From Dudresnaya verticillata (taxonomy: Eukaryota), in the NCBI GenBank assembly GCA_977862235.1, contig OZ374557.1, positions 1,922,001-1,986,000 of the forward strand: a stretch of 64,000 bases of DNA, written 5' to 3'. Shown here piece after piece: positions 18,667 to 57,844 of the stretch (the stretch's first letter is position 1; the number at the start of each line of letters is the position of its first letter). The position numbers and the translations under genes were made by a program. The notes beneath the pieces were generated by a model, which was given only the letters and a program-made list of their open reading frames with translations, did not search any database and was not told the origin of the DNA.

Positions 18667-18676
18667 AAGGAGGGGG
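18667..18676 (+). promoter_or_regulatory. Polypurine tract of element B
   Basis: AAGGAGGGGG, 2 nt before the 3' LTR. Confidence 0.85.
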
Positions 18677-18678
18677 TC

Positions 18679-22359: not shown

Positions 22360-23242
22360 GCCCCTCCCCCCTTGCGACTTGGCACAATGCCACTGGTGCG
22401 CCGGCACTTTGCCGGTGATGCGCCAATGTTAAAATAATCAACGCTCGAACCGCGCTCGAGGCGCAAAGCTTACAGTCCTGCGCAGGGACAGCAGTCCGTC
22501 CGGACACTTGTCGCGCTCAGAGGCAATGCCCTCCACGCTCCGTGACCATGCGCAGACACTTGTCGGGTTTCCGTGCGAACACCGGATCCAGATCGAGTGT
22601 TCAAAAAATACAAAAAGTGCGCTCCCCTTCTCGGAAGCTCTTGAAGCCCCGCTCCGGCAAACACAAAGCAACCCACGCCCCCAACCCGCGACGACATTCT
22701 GCAAGACCCCACATTCCTACCTGCCTTCTACTTTTTGCTCGCGGATGCCCCGCGGTTATAACCGCAAGCGTCTTTATCCTTCCGCTTGTCCGCAAAATGT
22801 CGCGTCGCGACGAAGCGCCCGAAGAGCTACATGGCGACACGGCTTCCTCTCCACTTCCCAGACGATCCCCACGACTAACCCGCAAGCGCCCGCGAGATGA
22901 TACTAACTCTCTAGACGAACATCCAGGTCCTGTGTCCCCGATTAAGTATGGTTCTATTGATCAAGGTGCAGTTGTCATTGAGGGACCGCCCTCCATTTCT
23001 GGAGATCCAACTATTGCCCATGTGTACAAAGCCCTCACCGAGCTCACAAAACATGACCTCAGATCTATTGCAAGGCTATGGAATCGAAAGATCAGTGGTG
23101 CAAAGAAAATACTCGTCTACCGGCTTTACCGCTACGTACAGTATCAGGCTCAAGAACTTCAGCGCAATATTTCAGTCGTGGTGCTCAGCCACAAATTCTT
23201 CCCAGACCTCAACGAGCACATGAAGGCATGGGCAGAACAATG

Positions 23243-24144
23243 TATGGTGCAAACGTCAGTGACGATGGACCGACGAGCAGTTCGGGGCTCGGTGGGTAGC
23301 TGCGCCCTTGGCGGTGTGTGGTCCCGCCGTGGGCGACTTGTTGGTAGAGCAAAGGGGCACGCCTTGGGCGGACTGTAAACGCCCGAGGCGGAAAGGAAGG
23401 GAAAAGGAAGAGAAAGGGAACACGTCAAGGACGATGGTAGACGTGGAAGCACGGGAGGTAGACGCTTGAGGCGTAGGCAGCGGTAGAATGCGCGCGTGCG
23501 GAACGGGGAGGTCTGGACCAAGGCCGGCTTGCCCGGGCGTTTACTGTTACGTCTGGGACGGCTTACCTAAGTATAGTACGGCGGTGCGGCGGCGGCGGTG
23601 CGTGCGCGTAGCGCGGGAACTCGGGACACGTGTCTTCCCGAGGCGCGTCTGACAGATCACGCGTTGCATGCAGCCGCGCGCCTGACAGATTACCGTACGA
23701 CCCCCTGTGTGGGTGCTTACACGTACACGTGGACGCGTGTGTCTTACAGCCGTGCGTGCGCGCGCACTGTAGAGCGTGCGCCTTAGATCTAATCCGATAC
23801 TTGTCCGATCCCGATCCTATCCGGATCGGGCCCGCAATGCGAGCACCCGCAGCCTTACAGGCGCGTATCTTACAGCTTAGGCGATCCAGATAGCCAATCT
23901 AGATGCCGGATCCGGATCGCATCCGGATCCGTGTTACAGTGCCCCGGGGCGCCATGTCGGCCCATCACCGTACAGTGCCCGCGTGGCGCGCAGCGCGCAG
24001 TGCGCGCGCGCGCCCCAGTAAGCCGTCGATGACGTGTTCGCGCGCCAACGGCGGTGGTGAACGCCGGTGGCGGTTTCTCCGTCGGTCGACGTATATGGTC
24101 TGCCCGCTTTCAGCGAAAAAGAACTCGCCTCCCCTTGCACCACA
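23243..24144 (-). repeat. Solo LTR of family C (902 bp), inverted, TSD CAATG
   Basis: Reverse complement of 24901-25801. CAATG at 23238-23242 and 24145-24149. Confidence 0.95.
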
Positions 24145-24900
24145 CAATGCGATGAGCTACAAACCCCTCCGTCCGACGAGGCCATCGAATTCGAGCTGGA
24201 GAAGAGCGGCGACCCGGCCGAGAGCTCCTTTCAGCCATCTCCAACTCCAGATGCTTTACCGTCACAACCTGGGCGGTCTGAAGATGCGGAAGAATTGCTG
24301 AACCAGCCCGGCCCTGGGCAAGGTGAGGAGACCCCCAATCTAACTGGCGACGCAGCGACTCCTGACTTTTCTATTTCTGAATTTGCTCGTTTGATGGTGG
24401 CTATTAGGGAAGACGCAGTGGCTCGGCGAGCATTGTTTTGACTTTCGCAGGAGCTGAGCCGGTTGCAGTTGGATGCAGGCGTCTCGCGGGACGACTTCTG
24501 GGCAACAATAGCAGGTCGTTTCAACGACTCCTCTTTGCGCCCGCGCTTTTCGTTTTCAGGTTCTGTGGACGAAGCAGATCCGTCTATTTTGCCCCTCGCA
24601 GAGCGCAGCGCTGGGATCTTGAAGTCCTATTTTCAACCGGCGAGATCTAAATTCATTTTGTTTAAGGAAAGGTGGGCAGTATCAGGGAACAACGACCCGG
24701 CAACGTTCCCAAACTTTCTAGTAAGGACTGGGCAAAGGCTCACAACGATGTCAAAAAGGGTATGGATTGTTTTCGTTGTCGCGCGCGTAGGGACTGCAAA
24801 CGAAGACGGGGAATTTCTACAGAGCACATCTAAGGCTATGGCCCCAGGAGTGGGCTATGAAGAAGGTGTGGAGATGCGAACAAGTGACGAGGACCGTCAC

Positions 24901-25801
24901 TGTGGTGCAAGGGGAGGCGAGCCCTTTTTCGCTGAAAGCGGGCAGACCATATACGCCGACCGACGGAGAAACCGCCACCGGCGCTCACCACTGCCGTTGG
25001 CGCGCAAACACGTCATCGACGGCTACTGGGGCGCGCGCGCGCACTGCGCGCCGCGCGCCACGCGGGCACTGTACGGTGATGCGCCGACATGGCGCCCCGG
25101 GGCACTGCAACACGGATCCGGATGCGATCCGGATCCGGCATCTAGATTGGCTATCTGGATCGCCTAAGCTGTAAGATACGCACCTGTAAGGCTGCGGGTG
25201 CTCGCATTGCTGGCCCGATCCGGATAGGATCGGGATCGGACAAGTACCGGATTAGATCCAAGGCGCACGCTCTACAGTGCGCGCGCACGCACGGCTGTAA
25301 GACACACGCGTCCACGTGTACGTGTAAGCACCCACACAGGGGGTCGTACGGTAATCTGTCAGGCGCGCGGCTGCATGCAACGCGTGATCTGTCAGACGCG
25401 CCTCGGGAAGACACGTGTCCCGAGTTCCCGCGCTACGCGCACGCACCGCCGCCGCCGCACCGCCGTACTATACTTAGGTAAGCCGTCCCAGACGTAACAG
25501 TAAACGCCCGGGCAAGCCGGCCTTGGTCCAGACCTCCCCGTTCCGCACGCGCGCATTCTACCGCTGCCTACGCCTCAAGCGTCTACCTCCCGTGCTTCCA
25601 CGTCTACCATCGTCCTTGACGTGTTCCCTTTCTCTTCCTTTTCCCTTCCTTTCCGCCTCGGGCGTTTACAGTCCGCCCAAGGCGTGCCCCTTTGCTCTAC
25701 CAACAAGTCGCCCACGGCGGGACCACACGTCGCCAAGGGCGCAGCTACCCACCGAGCCCCGAACTGCTCGGCGGTCCATCGTCACCGACGTTTGCACCAC
25801 A
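24901..25801 (+). repeat. 5' LTR of element C
   Basis: Ends TGTGGTGCAA...TTGCACCACA. Near-identical to 37218-38112. Confidence 0.96.
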
Positions 25802-25803
25802 TC

Positions 25804-25821
25804 TGGTCTCCCGACCTGGAA
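25804..25821 (+). promoter_or_regulatory. PBS of element C (TGGTCTCCCGACCTGGAA)
   Basis: 2 nt after the LTR. Its complement reads as a tRNA T-stem and acceptor 3' end: TT CCAGG TCGGGAG A CCA. Confidence 0.92.
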
Positions 25822-26023
25822 TTGTGCTACGTTTCAACGAGTTACTCCGTCGTGCGACGTCCGACTCTCCGTCTTCAGACGTTTGTCGCTAATCGTCCAC
25901 GACGTTCAAGCAACTGTACGATTGTATCATGGCCTCACGACCGCCGCCGTCGCGAGGCCCAAGTTCAAGAAGACCGTCTTCGACGCCTGGGAGTGTACCC
26001 GCGCAGAGACGTCGCTACAGCGG

Positions 26024-28489
26024 ATGACAACGAGGTCTGGGCGCCTCGTGAGCGCCGAGATCGCATCGGCGTTCCCGACGCTACCCCCAGGACATGGCCA
26101 CGCAGGCTCCCACGCGTCGCTCAACGGAGGAGAGTTACCTCCCCCGCCGACGCGCAACCCCGTCGTCGTCCGCACCTCCGTCCCCGAGGGATCGGCCCTC
26201 CGCACCTACCGCTCCTACGTTGACTCGGCTGATACAGTACAAGCCGAGCAACAGGACGTCGTAGACGGAACACAAGCCGACATCGTCGCGGGACAACCGG
26301 AACTTCCGGATCAACCAACCATCCCCGTCAACGACGATCAAGCGCACTCCGCGGAGCGCAACGTCGCTGACGAACCAATGACACATGGGGCATGTCGCCC
26401 CACTCCCCACGGCAGTGCCGGTTGTTCGCCGGCTAAGCCGAATTCGCCAAGTCAAAGGGCGCAAGGGACGCCAGACCGGTCAAACCGCGAAAGCCAACCG
26501 CCAACGGCGTCACCCTCGGCCGTCCGCGTGAGTAACTTAACGATACCACGCGAACGGATTCGAGAGCTGTGCGTCTTGGAGGACGATGCGATGCTCGCTA
26601 AATTCGCCGGGTTGCTGGACGACAGTGTCGGAGGAATCGCAAGTCGTCTACAGACGTTGGAAGAGGATCGGAACGGCGCCCTACAGGGGCTTCGATCTGA
26701 CCTCGACCGTCTATTGACGAACCAAAACGCGCAAGGCGAGGGTACACAACCACCGCCGGCAGTAACGGTTCATTCGCATTCTGAGCTTAGCTCGCGCGAA
26801 CGCTTTCAGCGACTTGCGACTCGCTTAGAGCGTCTCGAAACCGCCAAGTGGCGCAATGGTCCACCGTCGGGTGACGAGAGCTCATGCGAAGATCGTCACA
26901 GACGTAAGGATCGGAAGAGACGCCGTCGTAAGCTGCGTCAGAGACGGAAGAAGAATCGTCATCGACGTGGGGACTCATCCTCGTCCTCTTCGGACTCGTC
27001 AAGTGACGAAGAGTCATCAGACTCTTCGTCTGAGGACGACGACTTCCCAACTACCGGCAGTGCCACAAGACCTCGCGGAAAGCGGTTCAAGGGGTTGAAG
27101 GAGCTACGCCCCTCCAACCCCCTTTTCGATCAGTTATTATCGTACCGGACGTACCGTCTCAAAGACGTAGGGCGAAAACGCTCAGGGCGCGATACGGGTA
27201 AGGTCAAGGACCATATTAAGCGCTTGGAGCTCACCATGAAGGACGCCGCCTTCAACAGCAGCGACCCCGTCATGGTCCTCGAGTTCCTGACGCGTTGCGC
27301 GGATGAAGCCAATACGCTGGAGATGAGCGAAGCCCAAGCGTTCGTTGCACTGCCGTACTTCTTGCGAGGTACGGCAGCCACGCAATTCCGCTCCGTCAAG
27401 TCGACGTCTTCTCGCCATCGTGGCGGGGTGTCCTCGTATCCAGAGGCGGCACAGTACCTCCTCCGTACGTATGCTACGCCAGCGGCGATCAGGGACGCTG
27501 TCCTCGCCCTACGGTCGACGGCCCAGAAGAAAGGCGAGGACGAGACGACCTATGGGATGCGGCTAGCCGGTGCATGTATTCGTTGCGGTAACGTATATCC
27601 CGACTGGGAAAAGATGACGCTGTACATCGACGGGTTAGACCCGTCGATCAGGTCCCTGGTCGCTCGCTTCCGAGAAGAAACGCCAAGGGCGGAGTTGTCA
27701 TTTGAGCGGCTGGTCCACTTCGCACAGGACGAAGGGGATGCCAACCGCGCACGACACGGCAGGGCCGGTTCCGCGTCAGCACGACGTGACCTACTGACAC
27801 CGGCTCAAGCCGTACGCACATCGCGACCCGCCATCGGCGATGCCCGAGGGGTACTGCGTCCACAGACGAGAGGCGCCAAGCCTGGAGCGCGCGCTATGAT
27901 AGCGGAGTCCTCCGTCGAGTTCCGAGACGTTAGCCGCCCTGTCGATGACATGGAAACACACGCCGAAGGCGATCTGTACTTGGCAGACGAGCAAGCGTCG
28001 GTGCCAACCTCGGCTCTACCGACGGACAGCTACGTCGACGACGAAGAAGAAGGGGATACGGACCCTGCTCTCGCCTTTGGGCGCTCGGTCGTACCCGCGC
28101 CACGCGTCCCCTATTCCGAGTATGCTTCTCACGTCCACCGAGCAAGGCCCGGATGGCAGGACAGAGGCCCGCCCCGTCAAGACGCGCGTCGGCAGCTGGT
28201 ATGCCACCAATGCTACGCCCGCGGACACATCGCGCCGGACTGCTTCCTCCGCATGAGCGACTTCATGAAGGTTATCACCAACTATGAAGGACTAACCGAG
28301 GCCGAGAAGGCTGGTGTCCCCGCTGATGCGTATGTACGTTGCAAGGAACGCGCGACCCGCGACGCTGCTCGCCGTGCTGCACGACGACAATCGCCACGAG
28401 GCGGACCCATGCCGCACGCGGCAGAACGTCACCCGACGATGATCAACCGCTATGTAGCGCCACAACCACCGCCGCAGGCGAAAAACTAA
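26024..28489 (+). CDS. gag: gag of element C (open frame; likely start MTTRSGR)
   Basis: Capsid-like FNSSDPVMVLEFL...YLLRTYA and knuckle CHQCYARGHIAPDC. The ORF-track start at 25523 lies inside the LTR. Confidence 0.88.
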   Translation: MTTRSGRLVSAEIASAFPTLPPGHGHAGSHASLNGGELPPPPTRNPVVVRTSVPEGSALRTYRSYVDSADTVQAEQQDVVDGTQADIVAGQPELPDQPTIPVNDDQAHSAERNVADEPMTHGACRPTPHGSAGCSPAKPNSPSQRAQGTPDRSNRESQPPTASPSAVRVSNLTIPRERIRELCVLEDDAMLAKFAGLLDDSVGGIASRLQTLEEDRNGALQGLRSDLDRLLTNQNAQGEGTQPPPAVTVHSHSELSSRERFQRLATRLERLETAKWRNGPPSGDESSCEDRHRRKDRKRRRRKLRQRRKKNRHRRGDSSSSSSDSSSDEESSDSSSEDDDFPTTGSATRPRGKRFKGLKELRPSNPLFDQLLSYRTYRLKDVGRKRSGRDTGKVKDHIKRLELTMKDAAFNSSDPVMVLEFLTRCADEANTLEMSEAQAFVALPYFLRGTAATQFRSVKSTSSRHRGGVSSYPEAAQYLLRTYATPAAIRDAVLALRSTAQKKGEDETTYGMRLAGACIRCGNVYPDWEKMTLYIDGLDPSIRSLVARFREETPRAELSFERLVHFAQDEGDANRARHGRAGSASARRDLLTPAQAVRTSRPAIGDARGVLRPQTRGAKPGARAMIAESSVEFRDVSRPVDDMETHAEGDLYLADEQASVPTSALPTDSYVDDEEEGDTDPALAFGRSVVPAPRVPYSEYASHVHRARPGWQDRGPPRQDARRQLVCHQCYARGHIAPDCFLRMSDFMKVITNYEGLTEAEKAGVPADAYVRCKERATRDAARRAARRQSPRGGPMPHAAERHPTMINRYVAPQPPPQAKN

Positions 28490-31400
28490 CTCGGGCACCA
28501 AATCCTGGCACTGGGGTGTCGCACCGCGAAGAGAGGCCTAGCCCTCGGGTGCTGACAGGGAAGGAGGGCCCGAAGTTAGTTACTGATGACGCCAACGGGC
28601 GGGTAGAGTCCTCGCAGATGTCATTAAAACGCCCATGGCGAAGGTACCAGCCCCCCCAGGCGCGAGGGCAGTTGTTCGTAATGACCAAGAGGAACTATAA
28701 GGTGTACGCCGATTTGGGCGCAACCGTTAGTACCTTGGCCCGTAAACGCACTGTCCTCGACACGGGGGCTGGTCCGAATTTCATTCGCATCGACGACATT
28801 CCGCTGGAAGCGCGATCGCGCATCGTGGTAAAGAGCCTCCCCGTCATAGCCGACGCCAACAATAAGGCGATCCAGACAAGAGGCACCAACGACCTGGTCG
28901 TTCGCCTAGGACGGAGAGTCGTCAAGTTGGAACTGATCGTTTTGCGAACGACTCGCTGCGCCGGTTATACTCGGCTGCGACTTTTGCGACCGCTTCGTCG
29001 AAGCAATATATCCGCGGAGTCGCGAGGTTGAATTGGATGACGGGACTCGTTTCCCTATAACGCGCCGCCCGCTGCGCCGACCCCCGTCGTACCCTCCGTT
29101 ACCAACGGAACAGGAATACGGCAAGGCCGAAGGGAGGACGTCACCCAAGATCCGAGTCGCCGAGCGCGCGATCATCCCGCCTAAGGCGCAGCAATGGGTA
29201 TCGGTGACCACCGAGCGCACCGGCATCATCACAATTCAACCGTTCGGAACGCTGTACGACAAACAAGGTCTGGCCGTTACGAACGGGATTGCTCAAGTGG
29301 AGCCGCTAAAAGCGTTTCGAATTCTGGTTGCCAACTTCTCTCCCCGCCCGCAGGCGCTGGCCAAGGGCCAAGTCGTCGCGACGGCGTTACCACATCCGAC
29401 AGCAGTGTTCCCCAGTCACGTAAGTCTAGCTGATGTTTTGGGCCTCACAGAGAAACAGGCCGAGGAAGAGAAGGCGAACCAAGATTTCCGTTTTGAAGCG
29501 AATGATAACACAGCGGCACAGCCGGATACTTTCACGAAGTCTATCGAGGGAACCACTGCCAAACCTCCGTCAGTAGACGATTTAGACCTGGGACATCTCC
29601 CCGCCGAGCATCAAGGCCGGCTCAAGGAGATGTTGCGCAAGTATTCATCTATGTGGGACGGGTCGTTGGGAGAAATCTCAACCACGGAGCACTACATCGA
29701 CTTGCTTCCCGGCTCTAGACCGATACCTTCCCCGCCCTACCAGCGGGGCCGAAGCAGAGACAACTCGCTCAAGCGGAAGTGGACCGCATGCTGCGTCAAG
29801 GGGTTATCGAACCGGCACAATCGCCGTGGGCGTCACCAGTGGTCTTCGCCCCCAAGAAGGACGGGACCCTCCGCTTCTGCGTAGACTACCGTCGTTTAAA
29901 CGCAGTAACCGTACGGGACACGTACCGGCTGCCGCGTATCGACGAATTCATTGGCAGTCTAGGAGAAGCAAACGTCTTCACCACCCTAGACTGTAACAGT
30001 GGGTACTGGCAGGTGCCGATCAATCCGCGAGACCGCGATAAGACTGCGTTCACGTGCCACGCCGGGCTGTTCCGCTATAAGCGTATGCCATTCGGTCTCA
30101 CGAACGCGCCCACTACGTTTCAAAGAACGTTGGACATACTACGCGCTGGTTACAAGTGGCGTTCGTGCCTCGTCTACCTCGATGACGTAATAATCTTCTC
30201 CAGCGACATCGACAGTCACTTCCGTCATGTTGACGAGATCCTTTCGACATTGAACCGTGCCGGGGTGACTCTGAAATTGACCAAGTGTGACTTCTTCACC
30301 CCGACCGTCAACTACTTAGGACACGTCATACGTCCAGGACGGTTAGAAGTTGACCGAACTGTCACTGCCGCGCTACGCGAAGCCAAGCATCCACGGGATC
30401 AGAAGGAGCTACGGAGTTTCCTCGGTCTTTTTAACGTCTACAGACGGTTCGTCTCGCGATACGCGCATGTCGCTGCCCCCCTCAACAAGTTGCTGAGGAA
30501 GGAATAGGACTTCCGGTTACAACCGTTTGATGAGACACAAGCCAAAGCGTTCAGTACGCTCGTCGAGGCCGTGACTCATCCGCCTATACTGGCGCTACCA
30601 CAGCAGGGTCTCCCCTATTCCTTCGACTGTGACGCAAGCGAGTATCAGGTCGGCTGCGCTCTCTTTCAAACGCAGTCCGACGGGGAACGTAAGCCACTCG
30701 GCTTCTGGTCCCGCTCGCTCACCGCTCCAGAGAGTAACTACTCTGTCTCCGAAAAGGAGTGCCTCGCAGTAGTATGATCCGTCATGACGCTGCGACCTTA
30801 CCTCCAGATGGAGTCGTTCACAGTCCATACGTACCATTCGTCATTGAGGTGGCTGATGGAAATCAGCGACCCCTCTGGACGGTTGATGCGGTGGCGCCTT
30901 CGCCTTTCCGAGTTCGACTTTGTCGTGAAGTACAAAAAGGGGTACCTGAATACTCAGGCAGATGCCCTTTCGCGTCTACAGACGAAGGGAGAAACCGTCG
31001 AACCCATTGACGATGATATACCATGCTATCACGGAAGCTACGTCGAAGACGGCCATCAAACGTCGCAAGACGATCTGTCAGACGCCGAAGGCGAGGTCGA
31101 CTTCGCCGAACGAGAGTTCGAAGAGTTCGACCAAGTGTTGATCAACAACACGCCACCGGCGGACGAGGTACTCCTTCGTCAAGTGACGCATGAAGAGTTG
31201 GTACACGCCCAAGGCGATGACAAATACTGTAGCGATGTCAGGAAACGTCTGGATGACGGGATCATCTTACCGTTCGCAACGGATTAACAGCGCCTGTTGG
31301 TCCGAACAGTGGAAGTCCGTCCGCAAGTGGTCGTACCATCCGCGTTACGCGCTCGCGTACTCCACCTCCGGCACCACGCCAAGTTGGCAGGACACCCAGG

Positions 31401-33218
31401 GGGCGTAAGTTGTATCATACGCTTCGACAGGAATACTATTGGCCATCGATGCCAGTGGACTGCTATGCGACCGTCCGCAACTGCGTAACCTGCGCTAAGA
31501 ATCGCGTATTGCTGCGAAAGAACGCCAAGAAATTGAAGTTATTTCCGGCAACCGAGCCTCTCGAGTTCGTATCGATCGACATCCTGGGCGAACGCATACG
31601 CACGAAGCGAGGAAATAAGTTCCTACTCGTCATTGTGGACCGCTTCTCGAAGCTGGTCCGGACGGTCCCACTGCGTAGTATTACGGCATTGGAAATCGCT
31701 AAGGCGTTTGTACGACATTGGGTCTTCGTGTACGGTCCTTCCAAGAAACTGTTGTCCGACAACGGACCACAGTTTGTGGCTAAGCTGTTTCAGGATATCT
31801 GCCGTCTTTTAGGAGTGGAGAATCTCTTCACCACGACGTACCATCCAAAATGCAATGGCCAGGTAGAACGATTTAATCGAACTGTCCTGGCCTCGCTGCG
31901 TCACTACGTTGCGGATCATCCGAGAGACTGGGACCTGTTCACGGATGCCTTGACGTTCGCATACAACACACAGTTGCATTCGTCTACGCATCTCGCTCCG
32001 TTTGAACTGGTGCTATCTAAGCCACCACGGCCATTGTCGCTCGAGGCGGAACCGTCGCTCGAAAGCGTACCCACCGCGGGACAATACTACACCAAGTGGC
32101 GAACCTGGCTGGCCGCACTGATGGGAACCGCTAAGGCGTCGTTAGAGAAAACTGAAGCACGTTACAAACGAAACTTCGATACCCGATTAAGGAAATCGAA
32201 GGAAGCAATCGCCATAGGCGAATTCGTATTCGTACGTAAGGAACACTTCGCCCGAGGCGGGAGCACGGATCGCGCAGAGCGTAAGCATAAGCTGGCGCCA
32301 GTGGCGGACGGACCATACCGGGTAACCCATGTTGATAACGAGACGGTAACCGTCGACAAGGGACGTGACGAGCGGGAACGTTTGTCCCGAGACCGCGTGG
32401 TCTGGGCACCGACCCCACCGGGTCAGGTAGCCCCTCCAATCGTCGTACCACCAGGCCCGCCTGAGGGGCAGGAAGCAGTCGCCCCCACGTCACAAGACGA
32501 AGGGATGACTACCCCAAGCACGCCACCAGCGGACCCGGAGGGGAACGAAGAGACTTCGCATACTGCGGGAGATCCGCAAGAGCGCACAATCACCGCGTCA
32601 CGCAGTCGTAGGTTGGCAGAGCTTTCGCCCTTCGCCGCCGATCCCGACGACCGCGCTTCGCAATCCGTCTCCAACGACGACAGTACCCCAGGGGTCCGAA
32701 CCCGTTTGGAACACGTCGCTACGGCACCGCCGAATGAGAACAATGACTCCGCTGAAATTGCGTCCAATAACGAAGACGTTAACCGTGCAAGCACGAAGCA
32801 AGGCGCTGCAAGCAATGACCTCGTCTCAAAACTCGTCTCAAGACGCAACAACCCACTGACCGCTGATCGAGCGTCCGAGGCCCAAGGCCAACGCCTTCGG
32901 CGATCAACTCGTCGAGTACGTTTCGCCGAACCGGAACAGACGCCCATCACGCAACGAGACAAACCGCCAAAGGCGCTGGACAGGCCCACGTCCAAACCGA
33001 ACGCTGTGAGCGGGAAAGAATACGTGATTGAACGCATCGAGTCGCACGCGTACGCGGATAATGGGGAGATCCTCTACCGCGTCAAGTGGTTTGGATACCC
33101 CGCTTCAGCGAACACCTGGGAGCCAGTCTCCAGTTTGCCTCGATCCCACGTCACACGATACCACCGTCGAAAACGAACGCAGCTGCCGCCAAACGTCAAC
33201 GACGCGCAGCGCGGCTAA
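28480..33218 (+). pseudogene. pol: pol of element C: PR, RT, RNase H, integrase, chromodomain (stops and frameshifts)
   Basis: VLDTGAGPNF; YLDD; stops at 30505, 30775 and 31285; integrase in 31410-33218 ending in EYVIERIESH...YRVKWFGYPASANTWEP. Confidence 0.95.
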
Positions 33219-34406
33219 CCCTAATCCGCAAACACCGCTGGAAGCGAATGGACGCGTGCACGTGTGCACGCCAGGGACGAACGCGGACGCAAGTCGTTGC
33301 GTCATAGACAGCCTCGCGCACGCCACCTCGCAGCAGCCCCCATACGGAACCTCTGGATGGGTGCGCTGTTCACAGTGGATCCAGATCGCAAATGGAGATC
33401 CCCCGCCGGCGCCCCTCGGGTAATAGGCGGCAGTAATTGGTCAAATTCTAATTTCCAAACACGGCAGCGCGCACCACCCCGCCGTCAACGCACGACGAAC
33501 GCAATCATACCAAGTGGCTGAGCAGGTGCTACGAGCCCCAGCGACGACAGGCGCAAGTGGCAGCGCACAACCACCGTCTCCGACGTCGAGACGGGCACTC
33601 GCCCCACGGCCAAGTCTCTGGGACCGCCACACCGCCACCTCGCCGGCCACGGTCTCGCGCGCAAGACCCATCGAACGTCTCCGACATAACTCGCCAAGAA
33701 GGGGCGCACCGACAAACCCACCCCCGAAGGGGGGGAAGGTGGTCGAAGACGCAGTTGCTGCGGGTTCCGTGCACGACGCGCCAACAAATCGCCAACGACT
33801 CCGCCGCTGCCTGCGGCCGCCGCGTTGCAGTTGCGCGAGCGCGACCGACAACTCTACCCTACCCCCAAGGAGGAACGTCGAAGACGAAAGGAACGGCAAC
33901 GCCAAGGCGTCAACACCTACCTCACCGCCTTCGCGACTCTCGTCGGGGACGCCGACAAACCACGCCCAAGGCGCAGTGCGACACATGCATTACAAAAACG
34001 CTAAGTAAGCGGAAATACGCCACCGCCGCACGCGAAACACGAAGAGCAACGCTACTACAGCGGACACTACCAGCCAAACACAGCCGAAGCGCAACGCACG
34101 GCCAAGGCTAAATGCATCAAACGCCAACGCTACTGTAGCGGGCAACCAAGAACACGACGCAAAGTCGAAAGTGGATCACAGGTTACACCATAAGGCTAAC
34201 GCGAAACGCGACACACAAAGACGCTGGCAATGGCCGAAGTTTACTGGGCTGAAAAAATGGGGACAACCCCTCGCCGTAGCGATCGACCACTACAGCTACC
34301 TTAATCGTCAAAGACGAAGGGGAATACCCCGCGCATCGGTCCCGCAAGGGAGCCGAAGGGCAACACAAGGGGCAACTCGCGTCCGCTATCCGTTTCTGAA
34401 ACGACA

Positions 34407-36708
34407 TCAAGACTCTTTCGTCGCAGACGAACCGGCTGGCACATCCTCGACGCCTTCGGCGGACTCGCGCAACGCCTCTTCGTAGAGGTCGTCCTCCGTC
34501 GTCGACGGTACACTCACGGCAGGAGCCGGGGCGGACCGCAAAGGCCTTGCCACCGCAACTGCCGGAGTGGCTGCAACAGGCGCCGCAGGCGAAAGGGGCG
34601 ACTTATCAATCGCCTTCGGCGTCGTCGCGACGATATCCGCCAAAGGCGATGAAGCAATAACACCCGCCACAGGCGCAGCGCTCAAGCTATCGTCCGCCTT
34701 AGGCGTGGGCACAGCCCCATCCGCTTTAAGCGTAGTCAACGACTCGTCAACCACCTTTGGCGTCAGTTCAGAAACTGTCTTGATGGGCGTCGCCTCTTCA
34801 CTCGCCTTCGGCGTTGTTAATCCGACACCCGTCAATGACGCAGGAGCACCTAGCCCCTTTGGAACCGTCAACGACGCTATAGCGGCATTCGCCTCGCTCG
34901 CCGCAGGCGGTACAGGCATACTAACGTCTTTAGACGCCGGACCATTCGCCTTAGGCGACGAAGGCTTCTCTGCCACACCTTCCTTCGACGCAGAACCTAC
35001 GACACTAGTCGACTTTGGCGCGGCCCACCCTGAGGTGGGACCGCAGCCGACAACGATTGGCTCATCCACTCAGTGGGTGAGCCGCTCAGACCGCTAGTAG
35101 CGACGCCTGCCGCCTGCAATAACTCAAGCACGGTGCGGCGCTGCTCTTCAGTCCAAGCTGGCACCGCAGCTGAACCCCCCGAACCATCTACGACGTTGGA
35201 TACCCCGCCTTGAGGCGTCACGGTCGGCGGAGCCGACTCCAACATTGGCGTCGCCATAACGGCATCGCCATCATCGTCAGCGACGGGAGCCGCAAGGTCA
35301 AGAGGCGCAACAGCTGGCAGTCCAGCTGGCACCCCATCGCCACCGGCAGCACCTCCGGGCAAAGCCGAAGACGCGGGCGCAGGCTCGGCAGTCGACTCAA
35401 CCGCCATAGGCGTAGCGATATCCGTCCCAGACGGGTTCTCCGGTCCGCCATCGGCGTTAAACGCATCCTCCTCGGCCATTAAGGCACGCAAATGCGGAGG
35501 ATAATCACCGACAAAGTCGCAGCTCTTACGCAAACCACGCGGGTGATTACCCGGGGTGAAGCGGTCTGTTTTGCGATGGCGCTCCGCAACGTTCTTCGTC
35601 GTACGACGTTTAGTCCATGGATTATAATGGACCCAATCGCCACAGGCGGAGTGAGTCCGACTCATCGCGAATCGCGGACAGTTCGCCTTACGGCGGTTGT
35701 TTGCATACGGCACCATTGCCGGGTCGTTCCAATCGATCTCATCCGCCACAGCGCGTAGGTTCCAGAACTCCTCGGCGTTCCGGGACCGCCAAATATTTCG
35801 ACTAAGTCGAGGCTGCCAAGCTGAGCCACCACACGCGGGGGTAAGTGGTACATACGGAAGGTGTCATACACCTCCCATAGCCACGCATACGCCACGTTGG
35901 CAACCCACTCCGTGTAAAACACGATCCAGTACCTGGAATATGGGTCGGTTATCAGCTCGGAACCGAGATACGTGACACACGGAGGAAGCTCTACGGAGAA
36001 ACCCTCGCATATCTTAAACTCGCGCCACACCAGCGGTACCTTCAGGAAACAAAACGGTAACTTACTACGCTCAATGCGATCAACCTGTATGTCCTGGTAA
36101 GGCACGAATACGCCCTTTCGGCGACGCGTCTCGCACTCCCACCGGATACAACGCTCCCAAAATAACGTACCCGTACGATGCAAGTAACGAAAATCCGCTT
36201 TCAAGAGTACGCCTAATAGGTAGGCCTCTCCCAACACACGGGGCTCAATTGATACGCTCATATGTTTGAGCGATAGCGTCCCGAGACGATCACCATACTC
36301 GGCTTCGCCGGCTGTGCGGTACTGTCCCGCATCATAATTGAACAGGGGCGGCGTTAACGTCGACCCCGGATAACGCGTGAAGCGACGATACACGTCTGAG
36401 ACGAACTGCGCGTGGACATCCGCACGCGACTGCCCCGCTCGCACCCACAGCCATTCGGCAGGCACGGCACAGCGCAACTTCCATTCCAACGTCGAGAAGA
36501 CGCCGAGGGGCAGATCCCCCGGTAAGAAACCGCTAGCAGCGTAATGGGCGACCAATTCTTCCTCGCGCAAGGCCTCCTGGTCAAACCAGGGGGCCCGCGC
36601 GAAGAAATGCGCGTGATCGCGAGGGTTCTTTCCGACGAAGTCGACCGGCGAAGCGTACACCGGCGCGGCCGAGGGCGCCGCCACTTGCATGCCATTGAAC
36701 ATAGGCAT
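34407..36708 (-). CDS. Antisense extra ORF of element C (348-aa core plus frameshifted 250-aa and 220-aa segments), unknown function
   Basis: Overlapping minus-strand ORFs 35662-36708, 34997-35749 and 34407-35069. The core is homologous to the B antisense ORF and to 63767-64000. Confidence 0.72.
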
Positions 36709-37205
36709 GACGTCAACGACGCGAATACGTTAACGCCAGCGGCGATGTCTCTACAAACGTCAAAGACGGCTCGTGTTCTGCGCCACTGGCGAAAGCTTCA
36801 AGAAGCGTGCGTCGAAGACGATGCCTGTTGTAACGCCTTAGGCGGCGAAAAGAAACTCACGTCAATGACGTTCAACTGCTGCGCCACAGGCGATGCCAAA
36901 GGCAAACGACGTCGATGACGGTTAAGTTGCGACGCCCCAGTCGAGGGATATACAATAGACGTCAGCGACGGAGAACGTTGCGCGCCACGGGCGGTGATGT
37001 CGGGGCAGCGCCAACGCAGTCGCACGAACACAAAAACGCAACATGAGCGGAGTCTTACGGCGCAGCCGAGGTCGCACCGCGCACGTGGGCGCACCAACAC
37101 AATACGCGAAGGCGCGGGGACTCGCTCGCAAGGCGCGAGAGTGGACAGGAACGCAACGGGAGCGCGCACGGCAGCTGGTTGATGGTCGGGTCGTGTTCGC
37201 GTTTT

Positions 37206-37214
37206 GGAGGGGGG
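37206..37214 (+). promoter_or_regulatory. Polypurine tract of element C
   Basis: GGAGGGGGG, 3 nt before the 3' LTR. Confidence 0.85.
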
Positions 37215-37217
37215 TCG

Positions 37218-38112
37218 TGTGGTGCAAGGGGAGGCGAGCCCTTTTTCGCTGAAAGCGGGCAGACCAAATACGTCGACCGACGGAGAAACCGCCACCGGCG
37301 CTCACCACCGCCGTTGGCGCGCGAACACGTCATCGACGGCTTACTGGGGCACGCGCGCGCACTGCGCGCCACGCGGGCACTGTACGGTGATGGGCCGACA
37401 TGGCGCCCCGGGGCACTGTAACACGGATCCGGATGGGATCCGGATCCGGCATCTAGATTGGCTATCTGGATCGCCTAAGCTGTAAGATACGCGCCTGTAA
37501 GGCTGCGGGTGCTCGCATTGCTGGCCCGATCCGGATAGGATCGGGATCGGACAAGTACCGGATTAGATCCAAGGCACACGCTCTACAGTGCGCGCGCACG
37601 CACGGCTGTAAGACACACGCGTCCACGTGTACGTGTAAGCACCCACACAGGGGGTCGTACGGTAATCTGTCAGGCGCGCGGCTGCATGCAACGCGTGATC
37701 TGTCAGACGCGCCTCGGGACGACGCGTGTCCCGAGTTCCCGCGCTACGCGCACGCACCGCCGCCGCCGCACCACCGTACTATACTTAGGTAAGCCGTCCC
37801 AGACGTAACAGTAAACGCCCGGGCAAGCCGGCCTTGGTCCAGACTTCCCCGTTCCGCACGCGCGCATTCTACCGCTGCCTACGGCTCAAGCGTCTACCTC
37901 CCGTGCTTCCACGTCTACCATCGTCCTTGACGTGTTCCCTTTCTCTTCCTTTTCCCTTCCTTTCCGCCTCGGGCGTTTACAGTCCGCCCAAGGCGTGCCC
38001 CTTTGCTCTACCAACAAGTCGCCCACGGCGGGACCACACACCGCCAAGGGCGCAGCTACCCACCGAGCCCCGAACTGCTCGGCGGTCCATCGTCACCGAC
38101 GTTTGCACCACA
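37218..38112 (+). repeat. 3' LTR of element C
   Basis: Direct repeat of 24901-25801 (6 bp shorter net). Confidence 0.96.
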
Positions 38113-38654: not shown

Positions 38655-39740
38655 TTACTGTGGCAAGATATTGTAAGAAAGAAGTATACCGCTGCTAAAA
38701 AGGTTCGTTCTCAACTGCACACACGTTCGTTGCACTTCTCGCGCGCGTAGCACTCGCGCTTTTTGTCCATCGCGCGGCGGCACCACTATGTGTTTGTTTC
38801 TCCTATTTATCTTCTCCTGCGACACCTTGATGCCATGCTTGCGAGACTGGAGGTGCTTGCTCCAGGGGTCGGGGCCGGTACACACGAAGTTGCACAAGTG
38901 GCATTGAAACGTCTCAAACCCTGGCTCCACCAGCGAGGGCAGCAGCCCTATGTTACGAAGCTTCCGACGCTGGCGAGCCAATCGCTTTCTAATGAAGGGA
39001 AGTGTACCCTCCGGAGCATACCAGGAAGCTGAAGAGTGCATCGCCATATCTATGGCGTCTGCAATCGCTGTGTCTTCACCGTCGACGGCGTTGGCAACGA
39101 TTGCATGACCCTCGCTACTTCCATTTTCATTTGTAACTAAAAGCGGCTCCTGCTTCTCCACATCCGTTTCCAATCGCAGCTCTCTCTTGCCGTGATGCTC
39201 CTCCTCCTTCAATACCGCCTTCCCCTCACACATCGCGATCGCGCCGCGCTCCTCAACAGGGGCGACGGCAATTGCCGCTTTAAGGCGGAAGCTTCCGGGC
39301 CTTCCATCGGGCTGCGTGAGCGGTGGCGCGACTGTCCCGTGCGATGGCACAGCTTGCGCGGGCGATCGCCTGAAGATCGCCATCGATGGCGCAGCTTTCG
39401 CGGGATATGGTGTAGCTTGCGCGGGAAATGGTGTAGCTTGCGCGGGCGATGGCGCAGCTGCGGCTTGAGAGGGCGGTGGGGCAGCTTGCGAGGGCGGGGG
39501 CGCAGCTTGCGCGGGCGATGGCGCAGATGCAGCTTGAGAGGGCGGTGGGGCAGCTTGCGAGGGCGGGGGCGCAGCTTGCGCGGGAGATGGCGCAGCTTGC
39601 GCAGCTTGCCGCTCCGGAGCATCGGCAAACCGTGACTTTCGTCTGCGCCCCATCTTGCTTGGCGCGTCGGAAAATCGCGATGGGCGCTTGTGGCGCCTTT
39701 GACCTGGAGATGGGTCGTTAGATTCCATGGCAGAAGGCAT
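38655..39740 (-). CDS. Harbinger-borne ORF with Pro/Ala/Gln tandem repeats and a U1/matrin-type C2H2 zinc finger (361 aa)
   Basis: ATG-initiated ORF containing FQCHLCNFVCTGPDPWSKHLQSRKH (CX2CX12HX5H) and repeats of the type SPAQAAPPPSQAA. Confidence 0.62.
   Translation of the reverse strand: MPSAMESNDPSPGQRRHKRPSRFSDAPSKMGRRRKSRFADAPERQAAQAAPSPAQAAPPPSQAAPPPSQAASAPSPAQAAPPPSQAAPPPSQAAAAPSPAQATPFPAQATPYPAKAAPSMAIFRRSPAQAVPSHGTVAPPLTQPDGRPGSFRLKAAIAVAPVEERGAIAMCEGKAVLKEEEHHGKRELRLETDVEKQEPLLVTNENGSSEGHAIVANAVDGEDTAIADAIDMAMHSSASWYAPEGTLPFIRKRLARQRRKLRNIGLLPSLVEPGFETFQCHLCNFVCTGPDPWSKHLQSRKHGIKVSQEKINRRNKHIVVPPRDGQKARVLRAREVQRTCVQLRTNLFSSGILLSYNILPQ
39340..39610. repeat. Coding minisatellite (about 21-27-bp units, GCAGCTTGCGCGGGCGATGGC-like; a 69-bp block is duplicated)
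   Basis: Visible directly in the sequence. Encodes PSPAQAA/PPSQAA repeats. Confidence 0.85.
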
Positions 39741-40102
39741 CGAAGGCGCGTCTTCGCAACGCGTTGCCTGGACAAAGCGGTCCGCGGGATTGTCTGTCCG
39801 GTAATTTCGGACTTAGCGGATTTCATGCAAGATCATTGCATGCCAATAGCGGCACCATTCTCTAATGCATTTTAATCAAAATAGTACCTCCGAATTAAAA
39901 AAGTTACCTAACGTAAGAGCCACGGCCACCAATGCATCGTGACGCAATCACGGCCGGGGAGATAAAGATCTCTATCTTCATCTTCGAAGATGCTTTAACG
40001 ATTGCACTTTTAGCTTTTACTGATGGGCGTGCCTGGATGCTGCAGCCTCCGGCATGCTAGCAGCTAACGCGTATACCCGTACGGGACGTCCTTGTGGAAC
40101 AG

Positions 40103-41866
40103 TCATGCCGACGAACGCCCGGCCCAGGCCGCCATGCCATGGGTCTTCTTCGCGGAGGGCCAATCGTCGCCGTGGGTCTTCTTCGCGGAGGCCCAATCGT
40201 CGCGACGATCAGGCGCGCCTGATGGGCGCGCCCTGCCATCCGAGCGCCCTGTCCTTCTTCGCCATGCACGACATGCCTGCCCAAGCAAATTCACAACATC
40301 TTCACGCTTATTCCTCTCAGCCTTGAGTGCTGCCGAGAGCCTGGCGTTCTCGCCCTCTAACTCTTCGATAGCTTCCGTCCGTGCATTCTCTTGTAGAGCA
40401 ACCTGTCTTGGAGAGCTGTTCGCCTCCTCATTGACCTTTCTCAATGCTTCAATTTCTTCGCGCGCAGTCTTCAATTCTTCCTGCAGCGATTCCGAGCGCT
40501 GAGTTGCGTTAGCAGTCACCACCTCAACAGATTCCCGCTCCTTTGACTGGGCTTCTTCCAACTCTCTCAATTGGGCTTCCACATCTTCTTTTGCACCTCG
40601 CAGCTCATCAAGCTGCTTCTGATGACTTTCCTCGACGGTTCCGACCTCTGTTTCGCGCTCCTTGGCAACAGTTGTATCACTCTGCTCAAGGGCCGACTTC
40701 TCGCTCTCAACAGTTTGAAGCTTGTCTTCAGCCGTCTTCACAGCAGCTTCCAAATCTTGGGCAGCCTTTCCAGACTCTTGTGCAGCAACCTGAGCCTTTT
40801 CGTCATACTCTTGCTGCAAAGAGGCAAGATCTTGCTCGTCCCTGGCCTGTTCTTCCTCCTTGATTTGTTTACGCACATTCGCAATCTCAAGGGCGTGCGC
40901 ATTTCGCAAATTTGCAGTCTCGCGCTCCAGGGCGGCTTCTCCTGCGCTTACAGACTCTTGCAACGCCTTTTGCGCTTCTTCTTCGTGCATCTTCTTTAAA
41001 CGTTCTATTTATTCATTCGCAGCGCTCTTGGCCTGCTCAGCGGCCTCCGCCCTAGCCTGCCGAATGTCTTCAGCGTGAGCTATATCCAATTCCCTCACGG
41101 CCGCATCCCTCTTCGACAGCTCCGCTGACCTCTCGCGAACCAGCTTGTCCCTTTCCGCCAACTGGGTTTTTAACTTTTCAAGCACATCTTCCAAGGCCTG
41201 AACGCGCTGGGACTTCTCCTCCGAGCTTTTCTGAGTGGCGACCAAGGTCCCCTGAGCCGACTCCCATTCTTCACGTAGCTCAGCCATGGTGCGTTCCTTG
41301 ACCTCCAAAAGCTGGGAATTGCGCGAGTGTATCTCCTTCTTCTCGGTTCGCTCAAGTTCCAGTATCTGCTGAAGTTGGTCACACTCTTTCTCCAGACGTT
41401 TGTAGTCGGCCTCGTGGGTGGTGGCAGCTCCCGTGGGGCGGTCGCGGGTGGGGTCGGAGGGCCCCTCTGATTCTGGGAGCTTGCTGCGTAGCTCAGAGTG
41501 CTCCTCGCGCAGGTTGTTGTACCAGGCGGCAAGCTGGTTGTAGGCCTGTTTAATCTTGGCAGCATGGGCGACATGGGCCGAGACTTTGCGCTCGGCCTCT
41601 GCACGCTCGCGGTCTGCAACGACAAGCTGCTTCTCTAGGGACGCGATGCGGACATTGGAGGCTGCGAGATCGGCAGCCGGGACGGCGGTTTCGGCGTGAC
41701 GGGTGGTCTGTTGAACGGAGTCATCGAGGCGGTCCGTGGCGCGTTCGAGGCGCTCGAGACGCCCCTCGCGCTCGCGGACATCCGCACGTAGGCGCTCGAG
41801 CTCGAGCGCGGGGCGCGAGCGGGGGCAGGAATATCCGGCGGTGCGACGTACGGGGCGAGATGGTTT
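40103..41866 (-). pseudogene. Long coiled-coil protein fragment inside the Harbinger element
   Basis: One frame is open from 41866 (...LELERLRADVREREGRLERL...) through ORF 41009-41308, a single TAA at 41009, then ORF 40103-40990. E/K/Q/A-rich heptads; no start codon at the 5' end. Confidence 0.7.
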
Positions 41867-42219: not shown

Positions 42220-43549
42220 CTAAGCCGATATAACATCAGGTCGCGCCAATCCCATATCCTTCACAATGTCCACCATTCGATCCCTCAATTTTGACAGAGT
42301 CGTACGACTTGTTCTAGCCGTTTCCAACCGCGACCCTGAGGCCTGTGTTCGGTTCGCAATAATTCCCCTCATCTCCTCAATATACTCCTTCGCTTTCACA
42401 TACCAGTCTTCGGATTGTGAAATAGCGCGAACCATTTCAGAGTAGTCAGTAGAGCGAGGGTTAGACGACCGTTCCTCCATTTCTTCGTCAATAACGAAGT
42501 TGTAAAGCTTCATTGCGAGGCATATGACTCTGCAGTCGACATCAACAGTAAACGCAAGCTTCTGTAGTAGCCTCCATTTAGCAACAAGCATCCCAAAAGC
42601 CTGTTTAACATGCACGCGAAGCGAAGAGTGCCAGAAGTTAAAAGAGTCGTGCCAAAAAGACGCCACAGCTGAAAAAATGGAGTTATGAGCCACTCCGTGC
42701 AGATATATGCCTCATCACCAGCTATCCAAAAGCCAAGCTGTAGAAGTCCAGACGCTAAGCATTGGCCGAGCTTAGAAACAGCGTGCGGAAGGGAGTCGTG
42801 TGTGCTTCCAACGCAAGTCGCAGAGAAAGATAAAAACCGATAGTTAGCATCTACAGTAGCCTGCACCGGAATCGCATAGTAGGCCTTCCTGCACCAGTAT
42901 GCCGCAGGGCTCAGATCGCTTTCCGGTTTCCTTATTTTCACCGCAATCCCGTCCAAGGCACCAATGCATCCAGTTAGCGGACTGGCCGGCTTTCGAGACA
43001 TTGTAAATGCTTCTGAAGCTTCACAAAGGGCATCAGGGCATCATAAGAAGAAGGTAGACCAGGTAGCTGTAAACGCTTGTTAAGACTAATGCAGGTAGAG
43101 TGGAAAACATCATAGACTGTGGATTTGTGGACCTGGAAGAGCGGTACTAAATCCAAATAGCTTGCACCTGACATCATGCGCAAAGTAATACCTAGGCGCA
43201 TTCAGGGGCTTATCGTCGTCCTCCTTGACCGTCTTCCCATCTCAACACTGCGCTGCAGATCGTGCTGCACGACTGCTAACAGCTTGTAGAAGCATCTTCT
43301 TGTCATACGGTAGGCACTGCGAAACATTTCATCACTGTAGAAAGAGGATATCGATTCGAACGTGATGTCAGGGCGTAAAGGATACGGAACGGTGATGTTG
43401 CGTCTGCCCTTCTTGAAGGCCCGAGTGTTTCCCAAGTGTTTGACAACCTTGGCACAAATCGAAAGGACGCTGACTGCGACAAAAATGCGCCTCAAACGTT
43501 TGCTGCGCGCATTTGCATACAGTTCACGCGGAGTTCCCGAGGGGTTCAT
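42220..43549 (-). pseudogene. PIF/Harbinger DDE transposase (HARBI1-like), inactivated
   Basis: YRMTRRCFYKL, HTH-like LRMMSGASY...VHKSTV, CIGALDG, YWCRK, VQATVD, GSTHDS, GDEAY, FNFWHSSLRVHVKQAFG (catalytic E read as K). One stop and two frameshifts. Confidence 0.93.
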
Positions 43550-45422: not shown

Positions 45423-45797
45423 TGTGGTGTAGTGAAAACCCACGAACTCCGTAACGGACAGCTGGCCTAACTTTCCTACACGGGACGAGAGCGACACTAC
45501 CTCCACGGAGTGGTAGAGCAGTTCACACCGAGACGGGAGAACAGCGAGCGGCTAACCGAAACGGATATTGGGAAGCAACAGAAAAGGGGGTGGTACAAGT
45601 GCCGGAACGGAATTCGTAACGGTGGTGGTGGTAGACCGCAACGGGCTCAGCGCGGGGAAATGGTGAAGGAAAGAGCTACGAGGGGATTGAGGCTCAAGGG
45701 TTGCTTGCCCGTTTATCTTAGGAGCCAGTGCCGCTGATATACAAGGCCGGGAGGCACCGAGTGGTCCAGTCCGTGTGGGCCAGACTCTAGTGGTCTG
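45423..45797 (-). repeat. Partial LTR of family E (possibly the 3' LTR of element E)
   Basis: Direct repeat of 57845 to about 58227. Homology stops abruptly at a new TGTGGTACAA terminus. Confidence 0.85.
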
Positions 45798-46552
45798 TGT
45801 GGTACAACGAGCGTTGACACCCTGTAAGGAGCTACGTGGACACGAGTCCTCTGTAAGTAATGGCAGGCGCACAACTGCCCGGGTGATATGGCTGGCTCTC
45901 AAATTGATTTAATTCCTGGAGCGCTCCTGCGCTGTAAGGCAACACGTGTACAGCTTTAATCTTTAAGGCGTACGGTGTGGTATAACGAAGTCCACGGAGA
46001 CGCGGGGAACTCTCGCACTGTAAGGAATGGCCTCGGAGCCTAACGAAGGGCCTCGTAGCCTAACGAAGAAATGAAAAGGGGTGGTAGCGTGGTAGAGCGG
46101 AGCGACCAACACGAAGGACCACGGTGTCAACGTATTCGTGTGCGGAAGGGAGAACTGGAGCGATCGATCACCAGGGATGACTCCGGGTGCGCGGGGCTAT
46201 CGAAAGCGAGGCTCGACCGTATCCGCGGTCACGAAGACGAAGACACCGAACTCGAAGAAACAGGCGTTTACCGAAGACTCCGAGGTCCGGGCGCTAGTCG
46301 CTTACTGGAAACCCTCGGAGGTTGTTTCAGACGACTGGCTAAGTAATACTACGTGAGCACGAATACACGTCAACGCGGGAGATGGTTCGTACTCGAATGA
46401 TTCGTAACGGCCTCGGTGCCAACGAACGGTCGTCTCACGTATGGTTGCGGTTGCGAAGTGATGCATACGGAGGTACACGCGCGACCTGGGTTTCGGTTCC
46501 GTTACGCGCGGGAAACAACGGGAAGATCACGAAGGTGTCAGCGATTTCGTAT
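45798..46552 (-). repeat. Probable LTR fragment Z nested in the E-family LTR
   Basis: TGTGG terminus at the breakpoint. TGGTAGAGCGGAG at 46090 is the reverse-strand form of the shared U5 motif. Confidence 0.5.
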
Positions 46553-47271
46553 TGTGGCGCAAATCGCCTCCGCACCCTACTGAAGAATTCTTCATAATGG
46601 GCGTCGCCCGCGGCTCACGCGACTGCGGACGACGGGCCGCAACGGCCGATACACGCAGATCATCCCCTGCTCTCATTTTTGAGCTCGGAGCCAATTTCGC
46701 TGCCGCAACGGGCTCCCCCGACACGCGCGAGCACCAACAATGACATTGGGGAAATTCCCCTGTAAGCCGTCCCGACGGACAGCTCCCGACACCGGCCGCC
46801 AGCAAGGATGGCCCCTCGACACTACAACTCGCACTCGTGTGCGCGTGCGCTCCTTCAGCGCATGCTGCCAGACCACGCTGTCAAGAGGCTGACAGTTGAT
46901 ATTTTAGTAATTATAGATTTTGTGCACCACGCGATGCCAAGTGGCGCGGCCCCCTTTCACTATTACAATCCGCCACCAAGGCGCACCCGCCTTGTATATA
47001 GTATATTAGGGCCCTGAGGTGCGCCCTCATACAATAAACAGCCAAGCTTGGGCCCAGCGCGAGATATCCTCCTACCCTATCGACTCCGTCACTGGACTGG
47101 ACTCCAGTACGTACGCTACCCTTCTTCATCGTACAGAATCCTGTTTTCTCTTACTTTTCCTTTGTTTTCTTCCCTTTCTAGGGTAACCCCCTTTTCTTGG
47201 TCTTGTAGTGTTTTACAGTCGCGCTACGGGGCTATTCCCCTGCTCTACCGCTACCTCTACCTCACGCTACA
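46553..47271 (+). repeat. LTR F (719 bp), same family as the LTR of element H; no PBS and no TSD
   Basis: Ends TGTGGCG...CGCTACA. Inverted homolog at about 62908-63601. Confidence 0.82.
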
Positions 47272-47404
47272 CCCGGGGAAGACTGTCCCCCGCCCTCATC
47301 GGCACATCCGAAAGCTACTGCTCGTTCAGCTGTCCGTCCGGAACGGTATACTCCCACGGGCAGCTATCAAGCCGACGACGGGCGAGTAAGTGTACTCAGG
47401 CGCC

Positions 47405-50202: not shown

Positions 50203-50275
50203 CTAGGGGGACTGGGGTTCCACCCCGGAGCCCCCCGAGCATCCGAAAACTGAGGGTAGCAACCCCCTTGGCGCG

Positions 50276-51080
50276 TTGCCAACTCCCGGTTCATCGGAAC
50301 GGTCGAAAGTCGAGACAACTCTCGTTCTACCCAAGAAGGTATTAGCTCGCCCGATGGGCCTCCCTCCAGGGCGTACGTTCGAAGAGTATTGTAGGAATCC
50401 CGTATGCGCGCTGTCACGCTACAAGTATAAAGTGGTTGCGGCCGTCGGGACTTCCACTGAAAAACTCACTTGCGTATTATCCGTACTGGATTCTGGAGCA
50501 GGTCCCAACCTCATCAGAGCTAATGTCCTGTCGAAGGCAGAATTGAAGAAGGTGTCGACTTCACGACCAATCTGTAATTTAGTGTCGGCCAGCCGACACA
50601 AACTAACTACCCTTGGAAGTATCTCTCTCCTGGTCCGGATTGGAAATTACACGGTACCACAACCATTTGTTGTTGCACACACGTTAGCGGTCGACATCAT
50701 TCTCGGATGTACCTTTATCGATAATCACGTCGACACGCTGCGCGTGCGCAACCAGACGGTGATACTCCGTGACGGGTCAGAACACCCCATTCTACGACGC
50801 CATTGTGGTCCACTCCGTCCCGAAAAGACAAACCGAAACTACGGAGATGCCTCCTCGCCCCGTGCAGCGGCATATCCGCGTCGCTCACGCTACTCTACTA
50901 CCGCCGGAATCGGAAACCTGGGTTGCGTTTACATGCCCAGCACAGGCCACCCACTTCATGGATGCATTCCAACCTTTATACAAGACACAAGGAGTCGTCC
51001 TGTCCAACGGCATCACCGAGATCACACCGAACCGCCTGTTCCATGTCAAGGTAGGGCATTTTTCGCGGAAGCACCTCCAT
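50276..51080 (+). pseudogene. pol: Protease region of element D (truncated pol)
   Basis: VLDSGAGPNLI...DIILGCTFI. Homology to A pol ends at about 51080. Confidence 0.85.
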
Positions 51081-55130: not shown

Positions 55131-55205
55131 CGGTGTCTTGCCGATCCCCGGGCGATTCCACGCTCACGAGAGGTGGAACGCCGTGAGGCGGGGATGGTGG
55201 GGCCC

Positions 55206-57839: not shown

Positions 57840-57844
57840 AAAGA

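Follow-up and report, generated by a model that had tools for sequence, protein, structure and literature searches.

Extra genes lying antisense in the slot between the integrase and the polypurine tract, the position of the gene reported here, have been described in the LTR retrotransposons Grande, RIRE2, Retand, PvRetro13, and Boty, and their function is presented as an open question in the accounts we drew on (PMC7264820, PMC11963269). The product of Grande GENE23 is described as nuclear and as expressed from its own antisense promoter (PMC7264820). Among the Retand clusters, 97% are reported to carry TRP28 (PF04195), a domain predicted to bind DNA (PMC11963269). Outside plants, the brtn gene of the Botrytis Gypsy element Boty is also antisense and in the same slot, a likeness drawn from its description only (PMC7264820, PMC8365987). 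Among DNA transposons, the VANDAL accessory protein is described as an anti-silencing factor and offers a model for an element protein that binds its own element and lifts silencing, and the Plavaka elements of red algae carry the mobile accessory genes PAG1-3, of which PAG1 is described as having no detectable domain (10.1101/2025.02.11.637652).

The window, i.e., the whole stretch of 64,000 nucleotides that was analysed, proved by self-comparison and Pfam searches to be a transposon-rich eukaryotic stretch. The same approaches delimited element B (7612-19353, + strand), element C (24901-38112, +), and element F (45423-58227, -), inside which the truncated element G is nested. Element A is cut by the left end of the window, outside which its 3' end lies, and only the 3' end of element H is present, cut by the right end. 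Element B comprises a 5' LTR (7612-8286, +), a broken gag-pol region encoding reverse transcriptase (RT), RNase H, integrase, and a chromodomain (8418-15402, +; Chromo, E 1.3e-11), a polypurine tract (18667-18676, +), and a 3' LTR (18679-19353, +; 97.2% identical to its 5' LTR). In element C, the 5' LTR (24901-25801, +) is followed by a primer-binding-site-like 13-mer (25804-25816, +), identical in B, and by the polypurine tract (37206-37214, +) and a 3' LTR (37218-38112, +; 97.2% identical to the 5' LTR) at the other end. Its gag-pol region (25478-33218, +) lies in several broken frames; the gag part is gag-like according to the ESM Atlas, and the remainder matched RVT_1, RT_RNaseH, rve, and a C-terminal Chromo domain (E 3.9e-10) in Pfam. 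The 3' LTR and polypurine tract of H (62908-63611, -; the LTR begins at 63601, the polypurine tract occupies 63602-63611) are present, and this LTR is 80% like the 5' LTR of G (46553-47270). B and C are Ty3/Gypsy elements by their paired LTRs, primer-binding site, polypurine tract, and RT-RNase H-integrase order. Several breaks interrupt the gag-pol frames of both, so that these copies are probably dead or contain assembly errors. The style of gag and protease and the scarcity of introns in the host genes resemble what is seen in red algae, a likeness for which an ESM Atlas query with gag gave no support.

Several further features were observed in the window. A third copy of the C LTR, inverted and 98% identical (23241-24145, -), lies 756 bases from the C 5' LTR and is likely a solo LTR. 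The flanks of C show a plausible 5-base target-site duplication; none was seen at the flanks of B (7590-7611 and 19354-19380), and B may be a recombinant or may have lost a flank. The integrase of C contains a low-complexity linker of ~200 residues before the chromodomain (32400-33000, +), much longer than that of B. An uninterrupted host gene of 573 residues with two homeodomains occupies 20434-22155 (+). An ORF at 38655-39812 (-) combines 21/27-base tandem repeats coding for Ala/Pro/Gln with a C2H2 zinc finger (zf-met, E 2e-4), and upstream of it lies a long coiled-coil-like protein (40103-41866, -). We also noted a broken DDE_Tnp_4 transposase remnant (42220-43040, -), presumably of Harbinger type, and a further Gypsy-like remnant (59568-62621, +) that has a protease-like motif, is without RT, and ends at the LTR of H.

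The extra gene of element C is read from the minus strand in pieces. The first piece (35788-36708, -; profile E 1e-97) holds the initiator methionine and the first ~307 core residues, and its frame (36708-35665) continues past the break to 35665. The second (34997-35782, -, in the frame 35863-34997) matched the profile with E 2.5e-15 and an intact database relative, P0001, with E 3e-6; it comprises the last ~90 core residues, followed by an Ala/Pro/Gly/Asp-rich linker and a weak two-helix tail module. P0001 matched the first piece with 37% identity (E 1.7e-53), and since this match runs on into the second piece, the two represent one gene broken near 35785. A third frame, an Ala/Pro/Ser/Val-rich tail that reaches the stop codon (34407-35069, -), probably belongs to the same gene; it was assigned by position and composition and gave no match to the core profile. 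In element B, the first piece (16427-18319, -) is a divergent core with insertions, with a first methionine at 18319 and a core-proximal one at 17935, and a probable second piece (15786-16682, -) is a low-complexity tail ending in a basic motif like a nuclear localization signal (NLS), at residue ~290. Element H contributes the first 77 codons (63767-64000, +) before the window ends. A sequence-only reading of this DNA had placed an antisense ORF between integrase and polypurine tract in all three elements and had quoted 16 peptide blocks from them, every one of which was found (C, 36657-35135, -; B, 17437-16086, -; H, 63836-63997, +). The placement holds for B and C; for H it holds on the side of the polypurine tract, since the window includes only its 3' LTR, polypurine tract, and 77 codons. 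Across B, C, and H, the distance between start codon and 3' LTR is 166-510 bases (510 in C), so that the gene begins near the 3' LTR as in Grande gene23 (PMC7264820).

To collect relatives, a first profile made from P0001, C, and H was searched against 1.84 billion representatives, and matched 942 clusters (50% identity) at E<=0.001, 388 at 1e-10, and 100 at 1e-30. Further family analyses drew on the best 150 of the 942 clusters, and of 151 database proteins, the 82 with a coverage of at least 250 positions went into a second (core) profile. Word-index searches found one relative with C, none with B, and none among longer proteins; an ESM Atlas search with P0001 gave no usable match. No named member occurred among the 20 clusters looked up, and no genomic surroundings of relatives were found in the metagenome, viral, or prokaryote collections. 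The median core identity among 53 near-complete cores was 29% (22-38%), and Trp, Pro, Arg, Glu, and Tyr positions were nonetheless fixed across them, a combination that points to long selection on the protein. In a quick-search tree of 31 relatives with C and B, C grouped with P0012, and B sat unplaced on the longest branch. The wider family is probably Gypsy-borne. Searches of the freely accessible literature yielded no description of the protein. The protein family is apparently new and large, and its arrangement is of a known kind.

Homology among the three window copies was assessed both directly and through the core profile. Direct local alignment of C with H gave a score of 114, reached by 0/1000 shuffles, which bears out the N-terminal likeness claimed for this pair. 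The C-B score of 50 was reached by 19/1000 shuffles, a borderline result that leaves the quoted C-B blocks on their own barely above chance, and the B-H score of 27 was reached by 774/1000; the C-B similarity had E 0.74 by tblastn and E 0.45 with the three-sequence profile. In contrast, the profile of 82 database relatives, with B not in the query, matched the first piece of B with E 1.8e-15 (44.4 bits vs at most 3.8 bits in shuffles, 0/300 of which reached it). The same profile matched H with E 4e-13, and the next unrelated ORF of the window had E 0.61. As C and H had been in the first query, only the score of B is independent. The core profile aligned three of the four earlier C-B core blocks in the same register. 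The explanation by which the similarity of B, or else the gene as a whole, reflects chance or the shadow of a sense-strand gene draws on the borderline direct alignment; it is refuted by the profile score of B and by the stops in the sense frames, and we assign it a negligible probability. Over the core region, the antisense frame was the only open one of six, each other frame carrying 8-15 stops, and the codon-position GC content of the extra gene (0.60/0.44/0.67) resembled that of RT (0.59/0.44/0.65). These properties, together with the hundreds of diverged relatives, support the earlier claim of a conserved third, antisense, protein-coding gene. Each gene-bearing family is sampled by one copy in the window. 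A selected protein-coding gene is very probably common to B, C, and H.

The three LTRs were said to be dissimilar, and blastn indeed detected no similarity among them, nor among the DNA sequences of the three extra genes. Between B and C, the extra gene is less conserved (~21% identity over aligned blocks) than gag (32%), integrase (55%), and RT (65%), and this greater drift fits a host arms race or an exchange of the gene between lineages. The core profile gave no match in elements A, F, and G; of these, A has its 3' end beyond the window and G is a truncated copy, whereas both LTRs of F are present. F is 74% like B in pol, its LTRs are related to those of B, and it shows no trace of the extra gene, so the earlier description of the gene as lineage-wide is not borne out here. 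The extra gene of F may have been deleted or may never have been present. Element G is inserted where this gene would lie. A Pro/Ala/Glu-rich frame (51046-51483, -), starting where the protease region of G ends, matched no relative and could be the tail of an extra gene of the H/G family after an internal deletion.

In members of the family, a variable extension at the N-terminus (median 44 residues) precedes a core of ~390 residues, which is followed by a low-complexity tail (median 120 residues). AlphaFold2, supplied with 104 sequences, predicted a mostly helical core with a pLDDT of ~97 over residues 25-410 and a pTM of 0.86; the C-half folded on its own scored 90. Predicting the structure and running Foldseek had been suggested with the earlier claims, and against this confident model Foldseek returned no match at E<=0.001 from the PDB and viral libraries. 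In a wide structure search (VIA), the whole model reached at best Z 2.3 (50 aligned at rmsd 3.4), and the C-half Z 3.0 (54 aligned at rmsd 3.8). The modelled core is possibly a new fold, this comparison with solved and viral structures being no proof. Columns conserved at 70% or more include nine Arg and ten Asp/Glu, and none of His, Cys, or Ser among the 53 near-complete relatives. With a median net charge of -2, the core as a whole is not basic. The highest 19-residue hydropathy was 1.11-1.51 in the window's pieces; it exceeded 1.6 in 11/53 relatives and 2 in only one of 53. The protein is thus predicted to be soluble and mostly helical, with no membrane anchor.

About half of the tails contain a 37-residue helix-Gly-loop-helix module, the shape of which we take to resemble a helix-extension-helix domain. 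The module pattern matched 25/64 tails compared to 0.4 in shuffles, and a module profile (21 rows) matched 33/64 tails, including 12/43 among the held-out ones. Element C has a weak copy at ~35039-35152, directly after the WTE tripeptide (6.3 bits, 0/300 shuffles); none was detected in the B tail, where 45/300 shuffles reach the score. Residues ~520-600 of P0068 seemingly hold two such modules in tandem. Comparison of the module with HeH (E 0.12) and with Ish1 (E 0.16) gave values that are not significant, each being one of 23 rows, and no match of HeH, LEM, or SAP type was obtained among PDB sequences. The WTE motif, which had been singled out as conserved in the tails of C and B, was rejected as a family motif, being present in 0/64 tails of relatives. 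NLS-like motifs outside the core were found in 9/53 relatives vs 3.6 in shuffles (2/500 shuffles reach this number); the remaining 44/53 relatives and C had none.

Searches for described families left the protein unassigned, in agreement with the statement that it was not recognised. No described domain was matched in Pfam, NCBIfam, and PHROGs, where the 104 proteins gave only single-member, sub-threshold matches, and PDB sequences gave no significant match to the family. One such match, to MBD, occurred in 1/104 proteins at E 0.004, below the cut-off and as chance would give; the matching part is the C-terminal hairpin-helix of the core, and MBD is absent among the listed structural matches of the C-half, which barely cover this part. 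TRP28 (PF04195) was rejected, with 0/104 proteins matching at E up to 10 and 0/5 window pieces. Membership in Tat/Retand was likewise rejected, given the C-terminal chromodomain of the integrase in both B and C (Pfam); a chromodomain is also present in Boty. The Tat/Retand ORFs, as described, share with those of B and C the antisense orientation, the position between pol and the 3' LTR, and the occurrence in several families, whereas Retand elements are non-chromodomain elements of flowering plants, and the genes of B and C encode a larger, different core without PF04195 (PMC11963269). In their RT-RNase H-integrase-chromodomain order, B and C resemble the chromoviruses, Chronos, and the Ectocarpus lineages as these are described (PMC5348765, PMC12477816); a chromodomain alone does not define a chromovirus, since other lineages have it, and Pfam showed no second RNase H, such as Chronos has, in the window elements. 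With regard to the DNA transposons, no sequence or fold likeness was seen between the extra gene and the VANDAL accessory protein, PAG1 of Plavaka is likened to the extra gene by description only, and the methylase, SET, or oxygenase domains described for PAG2/PAG3 are absent from it (10.1101/2025.02.11.637652).

Our tentative main reading, to which we give a probability of roughly 35%, is that the extra gene encodes a nuclear accessory factor that binds the DNA or chromatin of its element and keeps it transcribed against host silencing. An LTR-to-LTR RNA cannot encode the gene in sense, so the gene needs a transcript of its own; an antisense promoter within the 3' LTR or close to it would drive it, and the protein would be located in the nucleus, bind the element's own DNA or chromatin, and help the element rather than the host by opposing silencing. 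An element gene is suggested by its occurrence at one position and on one strand in three families whose LTRs are unrelated, and a nuclear role by the nine conserved Arg columns, the excess of NLS-like motifs, and the tail module as leads toward nucleic acid or chromatin. Grande GENE23, TRP28, and the VANDAL accessory protein serve as precedents. Against it stand the non-basic core, the small number of NLS-like motifs, the insignificant HeH and Ish1 comparisons, the lack of a detected module in B, the absence of the gene from F, and the divergence of the B copy beyond that of gag, integrase, and RT. The conserved Arg and aromatic residues would suit an RNA-binding protein no less than a DNA-binding one, and the gag-like fast divergence fits co-evolution with a partner. 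A helper that binds Gag, integrase, or the genomic RNA and assists in RNA export, small-RNA protection, nuclear entry, or target choice is therefore conceivable; PMC7264820 draws the analogy with accessory proteins of retroviruses. We consider such a helper doubtful, since the integrase chromodomain already serves targeting and a separate antisense transcript would uncouple the amount of protein from Gag.

The rigid domain of ~390 residues with its conserved Asp/Glu and Arg columns would also suit a modifying enzyme of new fold, with nucleic acid, chromatin, or a host protein as its substrate, and the accessory genes described in red-algal DNA transposons are enzyme-like (10.1101/2025.02.11.637652). 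However, the conserved charges may serve as salt bridges in the structure, no motif or family match was found in Pfam and NCBIfam, and His, Cys, and Ser fall short of the 70% level, which makes an enzyme rather unlikely. A different explanation concerns origin and is compatible with any of the mechanisms proposed: the gene could be a mobile accessory gene of several transposon kinds, perhaps PAG1 of red-algal Plavaka, and not Gypsy-specific. PAG1 is described as lacking a known domain and PAG genes as moving between transposon families (10.1101/2025.02.11.637652), and the RT sequences of B and C are close, in contrast to their extra genes, which are far apart; F has no such gene. We regard this as improbable, because the three window copies all lie in Gypsy elements, in one slot and one orientation; in addition, 3/7 members of one relative's cluster are on contigs of 10.6-11.1 kb, about as long as B, which is no more than suggestive. 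Finally, the gene occupies the env position, and plant elements have env-like genes, so that an env-like or movement protein for cell-to-cell spread was considered; it was rejected on the antisense orientation and the missing membrane-spanning stretch in the window's copies (highest hydropathy window 1.51), and with a single relative above 2 we hold it to be highly improbable.

The anti-silencing factor of the main reading and a chromatin-modifying enzyme can be stated together in a bolder form: the extra gene would be an ancient third gene with a new fold in a widespread, probably red-algal lineage of chromodomain Gypsy elements, acting as one or the other. We think this unlikely in its full extent. 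If it is true, the gene would be an LTR-element counterpart of the VANDAL accessory proteins, which are called VANC. The finding adds an unnamed protein family, possibly with a new fold, and the extra gene can serve as a marker for such elements in poorly annotated genomes. Since the family comprises hundreds of diverged proteins and comes with a confident model and a few near-invariant residues, tests of binding, location, and mutation are straightforward.
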